From: Alphaproteobacteria bacterium GM7ARS4
GTDB lineage: Bacteria > Pseudomonadota > Alphaproteobacteria > GM7ARS4
Reading direction: 5' to 3'
Assembly: GCA_014332745.1 (NCBI GenBank)
Contig: JACONL010000001.1
Coordinates: forward strand, 28,687-92,686
DNA length: 64,000 nucleotides
Shown: piece after piece, positions 3,490-64,000 of the stretch
Position numbering within the stretch: the first letter of the stretch is position 1
Layout: each line of letters opens with the position of its first letter
The notes under the pieces: generated by a model
The model's database searches: none
What the model was told of the DNA's origin: nothing
The model's input: the letters and a program-made list of their open reading frames with translations, nothing else
Program-made: the position numbers and the translations under genes

Positions 3490-5495
3490 AATCCTTGTCC
3501 AAGCGCCTTCGTGTTGCTCTGTATCATGCGCCGATAGCGCGACAACGCCCAAAGAGGAAAATAGACACTATAGCCACGATAGCGCAAATAAAAGACACGC
3601 GGAAATCCCACAGCGGTATAGTCATCTTCCCGCCAACGCCCATCCTCCTCTCGAGGCGCCGCTAAGAGCCATTCAATCCCCCTCTTGACAGCATCGCTAG
3701 AGACTTCATGGGCGGCAATCAACGCCATGATAGCCCACGCTGTCTGTGAAGGTGTGCTGGCCACCACCTCATCTCGTCTCGAAGGCCAATAACTCGCCCC
3801 ACTTTCACCCCACCCGCCATCATCATTCTGGCGGTCACACAACCACTGAACAGCGCGACGAATATAGGGAGACGACATATCCTCAGAAATGGCATGCAAA
3901 CCCGATAAAACAGACCATGTGCCGTAAATATAGTTCGTCCCCCAACGACCAAACCACGAGCCGTCTTCCTCTTGCTCACGCCGTAAAAAGGCGAGGCATC
4001 TAGCGATGACATCGTCTTCCTTCGTATAACCCCTCTGAGCAAGAAAACCTAAACAGCGGGCTGAAACATCAACAGTAGGAGGGTCGCGCAACGCCCCATG
4101 GTCAGCAAACGGAATATAGTCGAGATAGGCACTCGTATTATCGGCATCAAAAGCACCCCATCCGCCATTCTTGCTCTGCATGCCAATAATCCATCTCTCT
4201 GCGCGTTTCAGGGCTGGCTCATAGCGCGGGTCATGCGCCTTGTCTAACGCTATAGCAACAACAGCCGTATCATCAACATCGGGATAATAGTCATTGCCAT
4301 ATTGGAACGCCCACCCCCCCGGCGCAACGTGAGGACGCCTATCACGCCAATCACCTGCCGCCTCACGCACCTCTTTGGAAAGAAGCCACGCCATGCCACG
4401 TTCATGGGACGAAGAGGCAACACCCTCATCCTCGGCCAACGCTAAAAGCGCTAAACTACTATCCCACACAGGAGAGACACACGGCTGGCAAAAACTTTCA
4501 TCCACATCATCAAACACGAGAAGACGCAACGCCTCAAGAGCCTCCTGGTATCGTTCATCGTCCTTCCCATACCCTAACACATCGAGAAGAATAAGAAAAT
4601 TCATCATAGCGGGGAAAATACCGCCTAAACCATCGCGACCATTACGCCTCGCCATAGACCATGCGACCGCCTTGTTGATGGCATGACGGCGTAGGAAGGG
4701 CGGCGAAAAACGCTCGATGCGTCTCACGATGGCGTCAACATAGACAAATAACGCCCCCTGCCACGTCCCGCGATGATTTTTAATATAGGCAACCTTCTCT
4801 CCCTCCTTTTCTACCCTCAATTCTGTCAACGTCACCCCATGGTCGCCTTTGCTTTGTGGCTTCAACGCCATCAAAGCCAAGACCGGCACGAGAACAACCC
4901 GCGACCAATAAGACACCTTCCCTAGAGAAAAAGGACACCATGACGGAAGAAGGACTATCTCCACAGGCATCGACGGCACCGCCTCCCAAGGAAGCACCCC
5001 ATGAAAAGCAAGGGACATGCGCGTGAAAACATTGCATTGGGTGAGTCCTCCCATCGCCCGAATGGCACGGCGCGCATGCGCCATATGCGGCGCATGGATG
5101 TCATCACCCATCAACTTCAAAGCAAAATACGCCTTGACACTGGCGCTGAGGTCCATGTCGCCACCATAATAGAGCGCCCACCCCCCATGCCCCTTACGCT
5201 CCCCACGCTCTCCATGCTCCTCAGGGGACAGCGAACGCGTACGGCGAATATGGCGCGCAAGACGCCCCTCACGCTCTACATCCTTAATCCCTAAATAACG
5301 ATTCATCATAATATATTCAGCAGAAATCGTCACATCAGCCTCCAACGGAAAAACCCAATGGCCATCCCTCTGTTGCTTGGCACGTAAGGCGTTTTTCCCA
5401 CGCTCGATGGCATCGTCAATATGGCGAAAAAATGCTTTCTTATCGCTCACGCTGTCTGACTCCTTGACGAAGAACCAACAGAGGACACAACGCAT
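3486..5495 (-). CDS. shc: Squalene-hopene cyclase
   Basis: 669 aa. DVDDTA catalytic motif (YPDVDDTAVV). Multiple QW repeats (…GGWGE…, …GSWFGRWG…). Confidence 0.95.
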   Translation of the reverse strand: MRCVLCWFFVKESDSVSDKKAFFRHIDDAIERGKNALRAKQQRDGHWVFPLEADVTISAEYIMMNRYLGIKDVEREGRLARHIRRTRSLSPEEHGERGERKGHGGWALYYGGDMDLSASVKAYFALKLMGDDIHAPHMAHARRAIRAMGGLTQCNVFTRMSLAFHGVLPWEAVPSMPVEIVLLPSWCPFSLGKVSYWSRVVLVPVLALMALKPQSKGDHGVTLTELRVEKEGEKVAYIKNHRGTWQGALFVYVDAIVRRIERFSPPFLRRHAINKAVAWSMARRNGRDGLGGIFPAMMNFLILLDVLGYGKDDERYQEALEALRLLVFDDVDESFCQPCVSPVWDSSLALLALAEDEGVASSSHERGMAWLLSKEVREAAGDWRDRRPHVAPGGWAFQYGNDYYPDVDDTAVVAIALDKAHDPRYEPALKRAERWIIGMQSKNGGWGAFDADNTSAYLDYIPFADHGALRDPPTVDVSARCLGFLAQRGYTKEDDVIARCLAFLRREQEEDGSWFGRWGTNYIYGTWSVLSGLHAISEDMSSPYIRRAVQWLCDRQNDDGGWGESGASYWPSRRDEVVASTPSQTAWAIMALIAAHEVSSDAVKRGIEWLLAAPREEDGRWREDDYTAVGFPRVFYLRYRGYSVYFPLWALSRYRRMIQSNTKALGQGL

Positions 5496-8547: not shown

Positions 8548-8885
8548 TATGATGATGGCTCGCTTGTAAAAGACTCTAAACCAACAGCCTTGCCAGACTC
8601 CAATCGCACCTTGTCAATGCGCCCCTTGGCATCCGCTAACTGCTTCTGGCAGTGCTTCGATAATTGCATGCCACGCTCATAATACGCCACAGCCTTATCT
8701 AACATCACCGTACCTCCCTCTAATGCCTTCACAAGCCTCTCTAACTCACCCAACGCATCCTCAAAACTCATAGACTCAACAGGGGGGGACTCAACAGGGG
8801 GGGACTCAACGGGGGGGGACTCAACGGAGGGGGAGTCAACAGGCGAGGAAGCAACGGGCTGATTATTCTGTTCCTGTGCGTCCAT
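8547..8885 (-). CDS. xseB: Exodeoxyribonuclease VII small subunit with N-terminal (SPPVE)x4 repeat
   Basis: Conserved XseB core (FEDALGELERLVKALEGG…YYERGMQL). Stop overlaps the ispA start (ATGA). The N-terminus is encoded by a 15-nt tandem repeat. Confidence 0.8.
   Translation of the reverse strand: MDAQEQNNQPVASSPVDSPSVESPPVESPPVESPPVESMSFEDALGELERLVKALEGGTVMLDKAVAYYERGMQLSKHCQKQLADAKGRIDKVRLESGKAVGLESFTSEPSS
8774..8842. repeat. 15-nt tandem repeat (gactcaacagggggg)x~4.5 inside xseB
   Basis: Direct inspection. Encodes the SPPVE repeats. Confidence 0.8.
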
Positions 8886-8886
8886 C

Positions 8887-9834
8887 CTATCCTCTCACAC
8901 GCTCATGACTCATTAACGCCCCCACATGCGCCGCCGCACTCTGTGCTAAAGCAGTCAGATTGTAACCTCCCTCAAGCATAGACACAAGACGCCCTTGACA
9001 TATTTTTTGCGCCTCCTCCACAAAGAGCATGGTGAGGCGCGCAAAATCTTGGGTGCTCACACGAAAACCACCAAGGGGGTCGTCCTCATGGGCATCAAAG
9101 CCAGCCGACAATAACATCAACTGAGGCTGATACGCCCGCACATGGGCCAGCCCCTCACGCCATACCGATAGGAACGTATCACCATCCGTGCCTTGAGGCA
9201 AAGGATAGTTATAGACAAAGCCCGCACCCTTCTCATCACGACGTCCCGTATAGGGATAAAAAGGCCATTGATGGGTCGACATAAAAAGAATTCTCTTGTC
9301 ATGAGCAACAGCCGCTTGCGTGCCATTGCCATGATGGACGTCAAAATCAAGGATCGCCACGCGAGACAGACCATAAGCCTCGATGGCATGATAGGCAGCA
9401 ATGGCAACATTGTTAAATAAGCAAAAACCCATCGCCCGCTCAGGCTCGGCATGGTGACCCGGGGGACGCACCGCACAAAAAGCATTTGTCGCCTCACCCG
9501 CCATGACAGCATCAACAGCCATCACCGATGCGCCCACCGCACATAAGGTAGCCTCACGACTCCCCGCTGAGACCAACGTATCACTATCAAGAAACGCTAG
9601 ACCATGCTGAGGCACTTGGCTTATGACATGCATCACATGGCGTATCATGGACGGCTGATGGACAAGCGCCAATGTTGCCTCCTCCACCGCCACAGACTCA
9701 ACCCATACAAGCTCTAAAAAACGCTCCCCCCTCAGATAATCCATGATATGCTCCAAGCGCGCCACACGCTCAGGATGCCCTTGTCCCGTCTCGTGACGCA
9801 AACATGAAGGATGGGTATAGAGACATGTGGACAT
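8887..9834 (-). CDS. Histone deacetylase-family protein (acetoin utilization AcuC / acetylpolyamine amidohydrolase-like)
   Basis: HDAC-superfamily motifs (RPPGHHA, DFDVHHGNGTQ, GGY). Start most likely MSTCLY at 9834. Confidence 0.7.
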   Translation of the reverse strand: MSTCLYTHPSCLRHETGQGHPERVARLEHIMDYLRGERFLELVWVESVAVEEATLALVHQPSMIRHVMHVISQVPQHGLAFLDSDTLVSAGSREATLCAVGASVMAVDAVMAGEATNAFCAVRPPGHHAEPERAMGFCLFNNVAIAAYHAIEAYGLSRVAILDFDVHHGNGTQAAVAHDKRILFMSTHQWPFYPYTGRRDEKGAGFVYNYPLPQGTDGDTFLSVWREGLAHVRAYQPQLMLLSAGFDAHEDDPLGGFRVSTQDFARLTMLFVEEAQKICQGRLVSMLEGGYNLTALAQSAAAHVGALMSHERVRG

Positions 9835-54636: not shown

Positions 54637-54871
54637 ACAACAGCCTCCCTGTGTTTGAACGGGCTCTATAGAAGACGGGTAAATGAATAAACCCTAAACC
54701 ACGTGCGACGCTCCCTGTGTTTGAACGGGCTCTATAGAGACGATACATCACATGGATAACTTTCAGGGGTGCGACGCTCCCTGTGTTTGAACGGGCTCTA
54801 TAGAGGTATGGCAGTAGATAAGACAGGACTAGAAGTGCGACGCTCCCTGTGTTTGAACGGGCTCTATAGAG
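54637..54871. CRISPR. Mini CRISPR-like array: four 37-nt direct repeats (GTGCGACGCTCCCTGTGTTTGAACGGGCTCTATAGAG; three identical at 54703-54739, 54769-54805, 54835-54871 plus a degenerate terminal copy at 54637-54673) separated by three unique 29-nt spacers
   Basis: Repeats and spacers were aligned by eye. Spacers are unique, equal in length, and about 41% GC. The last repeat overlaps the stop codon of the adjacent tnpB-like gene. Confidence 0.75.
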
Positions 54872-56105
54872 TTGCTCCCGCCAAACGTCCTGTTTGCAGG
54901 ACGTCAAGGGCTTCCTTCTCTTGCGAGAAGTGGCTCACGCCGAGCCGTAGGATATTTCTGGCGGCGTTTTCATCTCGGTCGATGGTCAGTCCACACACAT
55001 GACAATGGTGTGTCCTCTCATCTAACGATTTTTCTACAACCGCCCCACATCCCGAGCATTTTTGGGATGTGCCTCTTGGGTCAACCTGCACAAAATGCTT
55101 ACCAGCTTCTTCCGCTTTGTAAGCAACTTTTCCTATGAAGGCAGCCCATCCCTTATCATGGATTGATTTCGCCAAGCGGTGATTTCTTGCCATATTGGCT
55201 ATCCTCAGGTCCTCAAAAACAAGAAGGTCAAATCTCTTCACGAATTCCCTTGCGAGTTTATGATGAAAATCCTTGCGCTGATGGCTCACTTTGCTATGCC
55301 ATTTCTGCACGGCGCGCAAGGCGCGTCGCCACCGACATGTGCCCCTTTTGGCGGCGGAGAGCGCTTGCTGTTTTCTTGCCAGCGTCTTCTCTGCCTCGCG
55401 ATACCAGTTCGGACTATCAAACGACTCGCCTTTATCTGTCATCACGAAGCTCTTAATCCCCACATCACACCCCACGGCATGTTTTACCTCACCCTTAGGC
55501 ATAGGGGTAGGCGCGTCACCGATACATGCTCTCACAAACAGGCGATAGCCTTTAGGCGTATGCTTGATGGTGCAGTCACAAAGTGTTGCGTCCTCTGGCA
55601 TGATATTATGGCGCGCCATGTTCGTTCTCATACCCCCTCGCACGCCTTTCACAAAAAGACGTCCTTCCTTTAGCCTATAGCTTTCGGTTATCTCGATGGA
55701 TTTCCAGCGCCGCCATCCCTTAAAACGAGGGAAACCCGGCGTCTGCCCCGCCTTCACCCGACGAAAAAACCCCTTGAGAGCCTTGTTCACCCGCGCCAAT
55801 GCCCCTCGTTGCATTGTCACAGACATCCACGCACAAGCACAATCCTTGTCTTGCCTTATCTCTGTGAGGCTCTTATTTTGGTCATAGAGGGTGATGGTCT
55901 TGCCTGTCTTGCGATAGCACTCTATCCGCTCCTGCAAGGCGGCGTTATATAAATCGCGCGTGAAATTGAAAAAGGCGCGCAACACTTTCGCCTGCTTTTT
56001 CGTAGGATAGAGCCTGTATTCATACGTGCGATGCATCGCCGTTGTTTCCGCGTCTGTTTCCATGTCGCGCTCCTGCCGTGTCCCCCACCCATAATGACTC
56101 GACAC
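54864..56105 (-). CDS. tnpB: TnpB-like RNA-guided endonuclease (IS200/IS605 OrfB family / Cas12-like), intact RuvC-I/II/III and zinc finger; probable start at 56036 (MHRTYEYRLYPT)
   Basis: N-terminal YEYRLYPTKKQAKVL OrfB motif. RuvC-I (VGCDVGIKSF) and RuvC-II (LVFEDLRIANM). Zn finger CSGCG…CHVCG. RuvC-III (DRDENAARNI). Confidence 0.85.
   Translation of the reverse strand: MSSHYGWGTRQERDMETDAETTAMHRTYEYRLYPTKKQAKVLRAFFNFTRDLYNAALQERIECYRKTGKTITLYDQNKSLTEIRQDKDCACAWMSVTMQRGALARVNKALKGFFRRVKAGQTPGFPRFKGWRRWKSIEITESYRLKEGRLFVKGVRGGMRTNMARHNIMPEDATLCDCTIKHTPKGYRLFVRACIGDAPTPMPKGEVKHAVGCDVGIKSFVMTDKGESFDSPNWYREAEKTLARKQQALSAAKRGTCRWRRALRAVQKWHSKVSHQRKDFHHKLAREFVKRFDLLVFEDLRIANMARNHRLAKSIHDKGWAAFIGKVAYKAEEAGKHFVQVDPRGTSQKCSGCGAVVEKSLDERTHHCHVCGLTIDRDENAARNILRLGVSHFSQEKEALDVLQTGRLAGATL
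54885..54904 (-). other. Perfect 8-bp inverted repeat (ACGTCCTG-TTTG-CAGGACGT) inside the tnpB 3' end, candidate guide-RNA scaffold hairpin
   Basis: Direct inspection. Located 14 nt from the first array repeat. Confidence 0.3.
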
Positions 56106-60569: not shown

Positions 60570-61193
60570 TCAAAACTGCCAAAACATGCAACGGCACACC
60601 CGACCATGGCGTGTCCCGTGTCGCTCTATCCTCTTACGAGCATACAAAACACCACACCCGTCATGCTGGCGGTAACGGGTGCGGGCATCCCCATACGGAT
60701 CATTCACGTAATAGGCGTTCTTATGGCGCGCTTTCGAAATGAGTAAAATGACATGGCCGCCCTTTAATCCCCCCAATGCTGTCGTCCCCATGATCACAGG
60801 CCCATCCTCCAACACAGAGTCCACATCATCCAACGTCATGGTCTCACAAAAGACACAACGCCCTCTCACACCCTCTCGATGCAGAAAACCCTCGATGGCA
60901 TGGCGATGGATAGCCCAAAAAAACATGCTCTTCGTCCCCCTGGCCACAAGGTCACGCATGCGCCTATCCTCCCTCATCATAGCTTCCGCTGAGCCCGCCT
61001 CCCCTACACTTGTCTCCACATCATCCACATAGCGACATAATCCCTTATCATCCCGCGCATCGATGGCAGGAGCATAATACGCCATGAACATCCATGCGCA
61101 TGTGGAAAAACATTGCACATTGCCGACAATCTGACCGCCAAAATCATAATTGTCCCTTTGGGAATTAAAATCTATCGCACGCATCACTATCAC
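60570..61193 (-). CDS. Hypothetical protein, possible papain-like (C39-like) cysteine peptidase fold
   Basis: Gln-Cys pair near the N-terminus (NVQCFSTCAW), with later His (GGHVILLI) and Asp (VNDPYGD) candidates. Assignment is tentative. Confidence 0.3.
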   Translation of the reverse strand: MIVMRAIDFNSQRDNYDFGGQIVGNVQCFSTCAWMFMAYYAPAIDARDDKGLCRYVDDVETSVGEAGSAEAMMREDRRMRDLVARGTKSMFFWAIHRHAIEGFLHREGVRGRCVFCETMTLDDVDSVLEDGPVIMGTTALGGLKGGHVILLISKARHKNAYYVNDPYGDARTRYRQHDGCGVLYARKRIERHGTRHGRVCRCMFWQF

Positions 61194-61419: not shown

Positions 61420-62265
61420 ATGCCTCTTACTCCTACATCTAGCGCAACTCCTCCACCCTATCTTCCTAAAGATTTTTATGCTGTCACAAGCGACCATGAT
61501 CATATTCGCTTCACAAAGGATAAAAAATCCCTCGTCCATGGGGAAAAGAAAGACCTTTCCTTTAGCAATATCAAAAGCATGGTCTCTTCGTCAGCCGTCG
61601 CTGCCGCCACTGGCGGTACTCTCGCCTCGCGGAAAGTCTACCACGTCGTGAGCGATGGACGTTCCATCGATAAAAAACAGCTGCTCAGCAAACAAGAAAG
61701 CCGACTCCATATCTGTCAGAGCTTCAGTGATGCCATGAGGCAAACACTCCAAGACTCCATCAACAAGTTCGATGCGGCACGCGCTGAGTCGCCCTTAAAG
61801 CAAGAGGACATCGACGACCTCGAGAGCGATTTCGGGGCATTGATGAAGAATACCAAAAACCTCGTCAGCCAGAAATTAGAAGGATTGCTCAATGCGTCCT
61901 TAACCGCTTCATATGCCTCCGATGTCTCCCTCAGCGGACAAGATTTTCGCGACGTCTTCGATGCCTATAGCGAACTCCTTGGGACGTTGCTCGATGAAGC
62001 AAACGAGATGACGGCAAAAATGAACCCCCCCTCCTCCACATCACCCTATCCAGACTTCGTCCCCGCCGGCCCTCGTACGACATCAGAGACAGAGGCAACA
62101 CCACCACCCGTCCCTAAAAAAACGCATAGCCCTTTGACACGCGTTGCCACCCACGCTCGTCCATCACCACCCCGCAGGCCGCCCCCACCACCGCCAACAC
62201 AGCACAAAGCCAACGTCGACTATCCCAAACCGCGTCCCCCATTGAGTACCATCCAGGAAGAGTGA
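61420..62265 (+). CDS. Hypothetical protein with Pro-rich C-terminal region
   Basis: 281-aa ORF. C-terminal PPPVPKK…RRPPPPPPTQ. No domain recognised. Confidence 0.3.
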   Translation: MPLTPTSSATPPPYLPKDFYAVTSDHDHIRFTKDKKSLVHGEKKDLSFSNIKSMVSSSAVAAATGGTLASRKVYHVVSDGRSIDKKQLLSKQESRLHICQSFSDAMRQTLQDSINKFDAARAESPLKQEDIDDLESDFGALMKNTKNLVSQKLEGLLNASLTASYASDVSLSGQDFRDVFDAYSELLGTLLDEANEMTAKMNPPSSTSPYPDFVPAGPRTTSETEATPPPVPKKTHSPLTRVATHARPSPPRRPPPPPPTQHKANVDYPKPRPPLSTIQEE

Positions 62266-62287: not shown

Positions 62288-63244
62288 TTAAACATGGATG
62301 TCCTGCTCGCTTCGCCTCTTTTCAATCCCATCACGGGCGCGCTCTGATACGAACATGTGGCCATGCCGTGGTTGCTGTTGGTGACAAAGGGCACAGAGGA
62401 CAACGAGGTTAGAGGAGCTGTTATCGTTTCTCATGCCATTTTTATGGTGAACATGGAGCGCTTCCCTCAAGTCTTGCGAGATAACAACACCACACTGCTG
62501 ACATGTCCAGTGGGCTTTATTACGTACTCTCTCTGAGATACGAGGCCAATCGGATGTATACTTGTTTTCAGGCATCGTCTCTGTTGTATAAATAGGGGGG
62601 TCTTCCGTGAAAGAATAGATATCTATGAAGGCCTTGAAGGCTTGCGGGTCTGTCCCTATGGCGAGAGCCAGTGCCCTCCGCCGCGGCTTCAGCCACTTTT
62701 CTTTCATCCCCTTTGTTGCAAAACGCCACCATACGGGGTACACAAAGGGTGGATAGCCCTGATAGCCCAACTTTTTGAGACAATTCCGGCATGGCCTCAG
62801 GCGTAGTTTCTCATCGCTTATCCACGTCCCGCCCCTCTCGGTTGGTGAAACAACAAAAAGACCATCAGGGTTATAATGCACCCCATATCGTTTGTCGAAT
62901 CTCCCTGCCCTCCGCATCTCAGCAATAGTCTCACATTCTGTGACGTGGAATTTGGGTCGCGCCTCTATATCATTCATGAAGGCATCCAACGCATCACTCC
63001 TGTTCTTGACATAATAATCACGTATATGGACGACAATTCTTCTGCCATGCTCGTCCACAAGGACGCCGCCAACTTCCTTGATTTTGTCCCAATCTTGACG
63101 TGTCTTGATGGTGAAGGTCACAGGCGTAGGGCGAGGCCTATCTTTTTTCGGCGCAAAATTGATAGGCGGCCCTGGATCTGCGCCCTCCGCCCCCATACGT
63201 TTGACGGCCTCTTTTATTTTCTCGAAGGAAACGTCCATGGCCAT
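62288..63244 (-). CDS. HNH endonuclease domain protein (C-terminal HNH; N-terminal domain of unknown function)
   Basis: C-terminal CQQCG…HVHHKNG…N…LCALCH, an HNH/His-Me finger pattern. 318 aa. Confidence 0.6.
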   Translation of the reverse strand: MAMDVSFEKIKEAVKRMGAEGADPGPPINFAPKKDRPRPTPVTFTIKTRQDWDKIKEVGGVLVDEHGRRIVVHIRDYYVKNRSDALDAFMNDIEARPKFHVTECETIAEMRRAGRFDKRYGVHYNPDGLFVVSPTERGGTWISDEKLRLRPCRNCLKKLGYQGYPPFVYPVWWRFATKGMKEKWLKPRRRALALAIGTDPQAFKAFIDIYSFTEDPPIYTTETMPENKYTSDWPRISERVRNKAHWTCQQCGVVISQDLREALHVHHKNGMRNDNSSSNLVVLCALCHQQQPRHGHMFVSERARDGIEKRRSEQDIHV

Positions 63245-63262
63245 GTGTCCTTTAATTTTTAA

Positions 63263-63862
63263 TTATTGCAGACGAGCACGGGTAGTCGTTCTGACAGCAA
63301 AGTCGACGCGACGAGAGGCCTCTCGGTCCTCTCTTCCAAGCTTATCCTTAATAAGACGACTGAACGATAAGCCATTGGCGGTGACCGTTTTGACAATCCA
63401 CTTCCCGTAGCAGTCGACGCCATCCAAGCGACGGCAGTAGTCAAGCACATTTAGAGCGCGCTTTTGGGATAACTCCATATTCCCCATATACGCATCTAAA
63501 AGGGTTGAACCAACCTTCCATTCGGATGAGGTATGCCCCTCGATACGAATCTCGTCAATAGCACCCCTGAAGGGATACAACACCTCGATATAGCGAGGGC
63601 AAAAATCACGCAATATGTCTTTGAATTTCTTATTGGGCTCTGCCCCGCCCTGTTCGAATAAAATGGTGGGGGATTGAAAACGGATAGTCAATGTCGCATC
63701 CTCGGGAATGATGGCATCCCACGCTTTGAGATCGTCCGCAAACTCCGCCTGCAAGTCTCGAAAAATCTCCTCCTCTTTCTTCTTGGCAATAATGTCGGCG
63801 CGATCGACGGAAATTCTGTAGCTGATAGCAATGAGAAGAAACACCACCATCAACCCCGCCAT
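63263..63862 (-). CDS. MotB/OmpA-like membrane protein (N-terminal TM helix + OmpA_C-like peptidoglycan-binding domain)
   Basis: TM segment GLMVVFLLIAISY. C-terminal GHTSSEW…NMELSQKRALNVLDY matches the OmpA/MotB C-domain consensus. 199 aa. Confidence 0.6.
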   Translation of the reverse strand: MAGLMVVFLLIAISYRISVDRADIIAKKKEEEIFRDLQAEFADDLKAWDAIIPEDATLTIRFQSPTILFEQGGAEPNKKFKDILRDFCPRYIEVLYPFRGAIDEIRIEGHTSSEWKVGSTLLDAYMGNMELSQKRALNVLDYCRRLDGVDCYGKWIVKTVTANGLSFSRLIKDKLGREDREASRRVDFAVRTTTRARLQ

Positions 63863-64000
63863 GAGGTCGGCAACAGAAAGCCACCCTCCTTCATCTTTCT
63901 CCTACTTTCTCAGCCAATCGGGTGTCCTCGTCATAGGGTTCTGTCATCCCTCGATGCGCGCTCCAACCTCCCTAGTTCTGCATGTATCTTATCGATGAGA

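Follow-up and report, generated by a model that had tools for sequence, protein, structure and literature searches.

Zorya type II is a phage defence system in which a membrane motor and a DNA nickase act together. Five ZorA and two ZorB subunits assemble in the inner membrane into an ion-driven motor that is anchored to peptidoglycan; this ZorA5B2 complex senses perturbation of the envelope by phage, its channel opens, ions pass the ZorB aspartate, and the tail of ZorA, which is required, passes the signal on (PMC11890865). ZorE is an Mg/Mn-dependent HNH nickase, which ZorAB draws to the membrane when a phage infects and which nicks DNA; natively expressed ZorE alone shows no detectable DNA targeting without ZorAB (PMC11890865). 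E. coli ZorE can also be used without ZorAB, alongside Druantia III (preprint, PMC13192584). The subject of this analysis is a zorA-zorB-zorE locus at the end of a 64,000-nucleotide stretch of contig JACONL010000001.1 of Alphaproteobacteria bacterium GM7ARS4 (the window, in what follows). The locus very probably no longer functions: it is read as a Zorya II relic in which zorE is an orphan, and it sits in the reduced genome of a symbiont. The GM7ARS4 metagenome-assembled genome (MAG) comes from the sponge Lamellodysidea herbacea and is a member of 'Ca. Methylospongiales', with 1.59 Mb, 52% GC, a size typical for obligate symbionts or pathogens, and a reported type III secretion system (Podell et al., PMC7313196). 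Within the window, the elements of the locus are as follows (ORF, open reading frame; TM, transmembrane).

63931..64000, minus strand: 3' end of the zorA remnant, the last 22 codons and the TGA stop (63933-63931), as read from the translation
63263..63934, minus strand: zorB (type II), disrupted; ATG 63934-63932, 223 codons, TAA stop 63265-63263
63902..63904, minus strand: premature TAG at zorB codon 11, in frame; orthologues have CAG/CAA there
63866..63868, minus strand: GAC, codon 23, for the ZorB/MotB channel Asp, past the TAG but ahead of the next start codon
63263..63862, minus strand: 199-residue ORF, zorB from the first ATG past the TAG; clipped TM helix and OmpA-like peptidoglycan-binding domain
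62288..63244, minus strand: zorE, apparently intact, 318 residues; N-terminal DUF8245 and C-terminal HNH nuclease domain
62357..62503, minus strand: HNH/zinc-finger core of ZorE, residues 248-296, from the Pfam HNH match (248-290) and invariant columns
62780..62947, minus strand: predicted N-terminal Zn site in the DUF8245 part of ZorE (H100, C104, C152, C155), invariant in 7/7 ZorE sequences

Gene families and layout

By their profile matches the three genes are homologues of ZorA2, ZorB2 and ZorE2 in a Zorya type II layout, and the locus is, on the same grounds, an unannotated and degenerate member of this well-characterised family. An earlier note on the window had placed ORFs of 199 and 318 residues on one strand, 18 nt apart, had seen OmpA_C-like and HNH domains in them, and had pointed to a minus-strand frame open at 64000 whose C-terminal peptide ends at 63931. 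The coordinates hold, on the minus strand, and the open frame is there: its last residues are ...LIDKIHAELGRLERASRDDRTL*, and the stop occupies 63933-63931. The two domains give weak Pfam matches (OmpA over residues 69-156 of the 199-residue ORF, E 6e-6, 26.9 bits against a cut-off of 27.2; HNH over residues 248-290 of the 318-residue ORF, E 7.6e-4, 20 bits against a cut-off of 21.4), which are backed by matches far above chance level to the PADLOC models ZorB2 (PDLC00641, E 2.9e-67, profile positions 24-230 of 238) and ZorE2 (E 1.2e-57). PADLOC models also find ZorA2 in the upstream gene. The best NCBIfam matches, below the narrow equivalog cut-offs, are ZorE (E 1.6e-41), ZorB2 (E 1.3e-47) and ZorA2; the ZorB1, ZorA1 and ZorA3 models of PADLOC match more weakly. 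A ZorE scan of the genome contig collection returned just two loci, weak and unrelated. The ZorB and ZorE proteins match GM7ARS4 entries on a 549-kb contig with 100% identity across the lengths aligned.

The genes lie on one strand in the canonical order, with 18 nt between zorB and zorE and with the zorA stop overlapping the zorB start (ATGA). The same overlap is found in L009, a relative (NCBI, MAG GM202ARS2; its ZorB is P0027), and the order zorA-zorB-zorE recurs in L009, in L010 (a second relative, on a metagenome contig from ENA), and in L008 and L012. This recurrence of the gene trio in relatives weighs against an unrelated OmpA-family lipoprotein or anchor standing by chance beside an HNH endonuclease of homing or restriction-modification (R-M) type. 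NCBI's own labels, 'OmpA family protein' for zorB and 'HNH endonuclease' for zorE (the public record also has 'hypothetical'), would allow such a pair, and so would a weak PADLOC homing-endonuclease match to ZorE (HEase, E 4.5e-5). That match takes in the HNH core alone (residues 246-296), whereas the ZorE match includes the N-terminal domain, and the PADLOC ZorB2 and ZorE2 models outscore any alternative by 40-60 orders of magnitude. The chance of a fortuitous pairing is negligibly small.

The likeness to described type II systems (E. coli ATCC 8739 and EDL933; Sulfuricurvum kujiense, PDB 8VVI) covers gene families, order, strand and the zorA/zorB overlap, as well as the OmpA-like domain of ZorB, the Asp codon, and a ZorE built of DUF8245 and HNH domains with their conserved residues. 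ZorB shares its MotB-like TM helix, Asp and peptidoglycan-binding domain with the other 5:2 ion-driven motors, those of Zorya I/III, MotAB, ExbBD and TolQR. The effectors of Zorya I/III are ZorC/ZorD or ZorF/ZorG; here the effector is ZorE (HNH), and the type II models score far better. Set against these systems, the window locus has a ZorA without the entire MotA-like membrane domain and a zorB with a stop at codon 11. Because zorA is a tail only and zorB is closed prematurely, there is a Zorya II layout but no complete system; family and order, which the earlier note had proposed, stand on the PADLOC ZorA2/ZorB2/ZorE2 matches, and completeness does not.

Lesions in zorA and zorB

Two further assemblies bear on the sequence past the window end. 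L011, a gap-free JGI contig, shares 4070 nt with the window at 100% identity (window x = 68720 - L011 coordinate); the ENA scaffold L003/L006, also 100% identical to the window, runs past 64000 and has a 100-N gap inside zorA. Beyond 64000 a MotA-like, multi-TM gene with a long tail had been expected. The gene there does belong to the ZorA family, and the idea of an unrelated upstream gene falls away (ZorA2, PDLC00637, E 2.6e-34), but it is the 262-residue ZorA2 tail alone, matching profile positions 157-382 of 420. The remnant has 262 codons and occupies L011 4001-4789, the equivalent of window positions 63931-64719; the part past the ENA gap matches ZorA2 on its own at E 1.9e-32 (profile positions 157-380 of 420), and the ZorA2 models as a set range from 1e-24 to 1e-34, so that the helical cytoplasmic tail is present. 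Alignment with S. kujiense ZorA (8VVI chain F) reaches just residues 165-368 (E 7.5e-15), and a relative's ZorA is matched from residue 166 onward. A tblastn search with ZorA N-terminal domains against the 20.6 kb around the locus (L006) and against the window found nothing. Because the two sides of the gene are joined directly in L011, the alignments are confined to the tail and this search was empty, zorA lacks the whole MotA-like membrane domain (~165 codons); only the tail is there.

The ENA gap was considered as a hiding place for the missing domain and was ruled out. The NCBI protein MBC6496785.1 (zorA, 262 residues), encoded on the same 549-kb contig, and the JGI zorA protein are identical save for the start residue (M/V; the start codon is GTG in both). 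They begin M/VDACSPSIEDEG, and the start M/VDACSPSIEDEGVG is the exact product of joining the sides of the gap through the 7 nt by which its flanking ends overlap in L003. The NCBI and JGI proteins and L011 thus join directly across the place of the gap. Ahead of the gap there are faint similarities (E about 12) that had suggested a frameshifted ZorA; the same direct join disposes of this reading.

It is very unlikely that errors of assembly or sequencing in the MAG produced the lesions and that the real operon is intact. The ENA gap does fall exactly at the zorA junction, and the assemblies do differ there by a 21-bp repeat unit, so assembling this region is not a trivial matter. On the other side, the assemblies of NCBI and JGI are contiguous and identical across the junction; the ENA gap ends share 7 nt in keeping with the direct join; and in L011 the zorA ORF start is only 236 nt from the start of a divergent proline-rich gene, against about 500 nt needed for the missing domain. 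The zorB stop described below is likewise identical in the NCBI, ENA, JGI and Logan contigs.

The repeat unit itself is a 21-bp in-frame tandem near-repeat in the zorA tail, GACATCAA[A/C]GGTTCTCTATCA, coding for 7 residues. It is present in two copies in ENA (L003 about 8880-8925) and in one in JGI (L011 about 4365-4390) and NCBI, and is the sole difference between ENA and JGI/NCBI across about 8.8 kb. A sigma-70 promoter scan upstream of the zorA stump returned no site and is uninformative.

The lesion in zorB is of a different kind. Upstream of the 199-residue ORF the frame reads MTRTPDWLRK-TAG-EKDEGGWLSVADL-M(63862), that is, ATG(63934-63932) ACG AGG ACA CCC GAT TGG CTG AGA AAG TAG(63904-63902), followed by GAG AAA GAT GAA GGA GGG TGG CTT TCT GTT GCC GAC(63868-63866) CTC ATG(63862). 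With this extension included the PADLOC ZorB2 match improves to E 3.9e-73 and begins at profile position 12; ZorB aligns to residues 8-229 of 8VVI chain A (E 3.7e-36) and keeps the conserved EGHTSS and SRRV motifs of the peptidoglycan-binding domain. Codon 11 is CAG in L010 and CAA in L009 (Gln), against TAG in the window; the two closest ZorB orthologues read MKKTPEFLRKQEKDEGGW and MKKTPAFLQRQEKDEGGW against MTRTPDWLRK*EKDEGGW, and in the N-terminal alignment with orthologues P0002 and P0027 the closest two show MKKTPEFLRKQEKDEGGWISIADLM and MKKTPAFLQRQEKDEGGWISIADLM. Because the closest orthologues have CAG or CAA at this codon, the window zorB is read as having suffered one nonsense change, CAG to TAG. 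Four assemblies (NCBI, ENA, Logan and JGI) all carry the TAG. Recoding of TAG was ruled out: the codon terminates 9/48 long ORFs in the window and is therefore an ordinary stop here.

The position of the stop is what gives it weight. The channel Asp, D23, is invariant in 15/15 ZorB sequences and aligns with D21 of 8VVI chain A; D21 of the S. kujiense type II ZorB is the critical Asp for ion transduction (PMC11890865). From the TAG to the Asp codon the sequence offers no start codon (ATG, GTG or TTG), and a product restarted at ATG 63862 would have lost some of the TM helix as well as the essential Asp of the channel. NCBI's own ZorB call has 195 residues. Since the 199-residue ORF is the part of zorB past the TAG, its TM helix is clipped at the N-terminus and lacks the Asp; the ZorB/MotB-like character that had been assigned to this ORF holds for the family, whereas the single complete TM helix does not.

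Together the two lesions bear on the proposal of a complete, working Zorya II with a full MotA-like zorA just past the window end. Three families in the right order, the ATGA overlap of zorA and zorB and an intact ZorE speak for it. Against it stand an upstream gene that is a 262-residue tail with no TM domain in two gap-free assemblies, and an in-frame TAG that precedes the essential Asp in zorB; L011 contradicts it. A working system is highly improbable.

ZorE and the question of a motor-less module

zorE appears to be intact. The ZorE2 model PDLC00642 spans residues 47-316 of the 318-residue protein; because this one model takes in nearly all of it, the assignment to the ZorE family extends to the N-terminal part. 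The N-terminal ~240 residues, for which no family had at first been recognised, thus find their place in the ZorE family, with Pfam DUF8245 (PF26739) precomputed for this protein as its N-terminal domain; the possibility that they came from a homing or R-M family is set aside by their match to the ZorE2 models. NCBI starts the gene at the second Met, giving 316 residues; the protein is full-length beside orthologues of 312 and 315 residues. Every invariant column of a 7-sequence ZorE alignment is retained: H100, C104, C152 and C155 in the N-terminal part, Y229 and D232, and in the HNH/zinc finger C248, C251, H264, H266, H267, N275, N279, C284, C287, H288, H294 and H296. On the sequence, then, zorE is full-length, carries all conserved metal-binding and catalytic residues and is apparently intact; nickase activity is predicted. 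E. coli ZorE has an N-terminal Zn-binding site with an essential His (PMC13192584), to which H100/C104/C152/C155 are probably equivalent. An AlphaFold2 model from a 4-sequence alignment has predicted local distance difference test scores (pLDDT) below 50 for residues 1-168 and is consistently confident only from about residue 231, in the HNH part (10-residue block means of 72-90). The protein is without the C-terminal nuclease-like extension of the Druantia-associated E. coli ZorE (372-391 residues; PMC13192584), and it has a private 13-residue insertion at about residues 186-198.

The integrity of zorE raises the question of a motor-less module, in which selection would maintain the ZorE nickase together with the soluble tail of ZorA and, perhaps, a clipped peptidoglycan-binding ZorB. 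Such a module would need no membrane sensing; it could act on DNA intermediates from another system, or downstream of the neighbouring type III R-M pair or of host DNA-processing enzymes, much as E. coli ZorE works with Druantia III. All three ORFs that remain are open, an active-looking type III R-M is adjacent, and the E. coli precedent of ZorAB-independent work with Druantia III (PMC13192584) is consistent with it. The two independent lesions, in both motor genes, have by contrast the look of decay; DNA targeting by ZorE natively expressed alone was not detectable (PMC11890865); the sequence examined showed no Druantia gene; and the sole other tail-only ZorA that was inspected is a broken gene. 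A selected module of this kind is very unlikely.

That inspected case comes from a survey of ZorA tails at large. A library of 1.84 billion proteins holds 149 homologues of the zorA tail, and in 137/149 the match is preceded by at least 100 residues; the other 12 look tail-only, with the match near the N-terminus. L012, the single one of these twelve that was inspected, is a ZorA-ZorB-ZorE locus whose zorA is split by an in-frame stop, so tail-only ZorA as a recurrent architecture was rejected: the inspected case is another broken copy and no distinct form. In L012 (2-1300; an unrelated ENA metagenome contig) the stop lies between membrane domain and tail, and a 'tail-only' protein of 293 residues is called there because it splits zorA. 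Split ZorA genes may in this way inflate database counts of short ZorA-like proteins. A metagenome scan with the ZorA tail gave one distant relative (L005), which was not used.

The groESL-pqq site and the probable decay of the motor genes

The relatives L009 and L010 have their Zorya genes at the same groESL-pqqBCDE site, in the order groES-groEL-zorA-zorB-zorE-(Mrr)-pqqBCDE, and their ZorA proteins (490/387 residues) are full-length, with the TM domain. In GM7ARS4 the first half of the site reads groES-groEL-Mod-Res (type III)-proline-rich gene-zorA stump, and the second half zorB(amber)-zorE-proline-rich paralogue-small genes-pqqBCDE. ZorB of the window is 55-57% identical to those of the two relatives and ZorE 47%; the ZorA tail is 39-41% identical to L009 and about 36% to L010. 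Both relatives have Gln at ZorB codon 11 and a full ZorA, whereas the window has neither. Their ZorB proteins are longer, 350 residues in L009 (2495-3547) and 294 in L010 (6001-6885), by reason of a charged, probably helical insertion of 60-115 residues that separates the TM helix from the peptidoglycan-binding domain and is lacking in the window ZorB and in typical type II ZorB (about 232 residues).

The type III R-M pair, apparently intact, lies between groEL and the zorA stump at L003 2370-4067 and 4089-6731, outside the window (about 66.5-70.9 kb equivalent), with PADLOC matches to MTase_III (5e-159) and REase_III (1e-218). The R-M and proline-rich genes are absent from the L009/L010 site, and L010 has an Mrr-like restriction gene after zorE. 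Because of the R-M pair here and the Mrr-like gene there, the groESL-pqq interval behaves as a defence-gene hot spot in this lineage. The inserted R-M segment is not clearly marked in the GC profile.

These comparisons suggest a course of events. On the simplest reading, Zorya II would be ancestral at the groESL-pqq site, and insertion of the type III R-M/proline-rich segment between groEL and zorA would have removed the 5' end of zorA; the zorB nonsense mutation may have come before or after this loss. The ZorAB module is presumably dead, its sensor motor unable to form: since ZorA has no membrane domain and ZorB stops short of its Asp, the Zorya pathway cannot be expected to run here. Because the remaining zorA, zorB and zorE frames are still open, the inactivation is probably recent. 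ZorE would be either an orphan awaiting decay or a protein with ZorAB-independent activity. For the locus as it stands, a test of phage resistance is predicted to be negative.

Three points weigh against reading the locus as a relic. The four assemblies may share one sponge sample or related ones, and intact alleles could exist in the population. All three frames are open save for the two lesions, as would be expected too if selection still acted on some of the pieces. Elsewhere in the genome there may be an amber-suppressor tRNA; it would restore Gln at codon 11 of zorB, not the ZorA membrane domain. The relic reading remains very probable nonetheless. The locus opens no long-standing question. 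It is a small, dated example of defence turnover at the groESL-pqq site in a lineage that resembles obligate symbionts: two relatives have an intact Zorya II, and here it is broken, beside a newly arrived type III R-M. Its value for annotation is that a defence scan going by gene families only could score it as Zorya II despite the dead sensor half.

The relic is flanked by two proline-rich paralogues of 281 and 458 residues, neither of which shares the strand of the zor genes. One lies in the window at 61420-62265 (plus strand) and the other beyond it (L011 2388-3764, minus strand, which is L003 6779-8155, minus strand); they are 31% identical over their N-terminal about 200 residues (E 5e-34). 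Neither Pfam nor PADLOC gave a family match for the two proteins. They may be secreted effectors, given the type III secretion system reported for this genome. Further along the minus strand, a protein of 207 residues (60570-61193) shows a weak, sub-cut-off similarity to Peptidase_C70, the AvrRpt2-like type III effector cysteine proteases (E 0.007), and one, also below cut-off, to Peptidase_C39_2 (E 0.076). Downstream of the pqq operon, at 54864-56105 (minus strand), lies an IS605 OrfB/TnpB-like gene, whose identical counterpart at L003 17176-18375 carries the Pfam marks HTH_OrfB_IS605, OrfB_IS605 and Cas12f1-like_TNB; one divergent gene of 306 residues separates it from pqqE.

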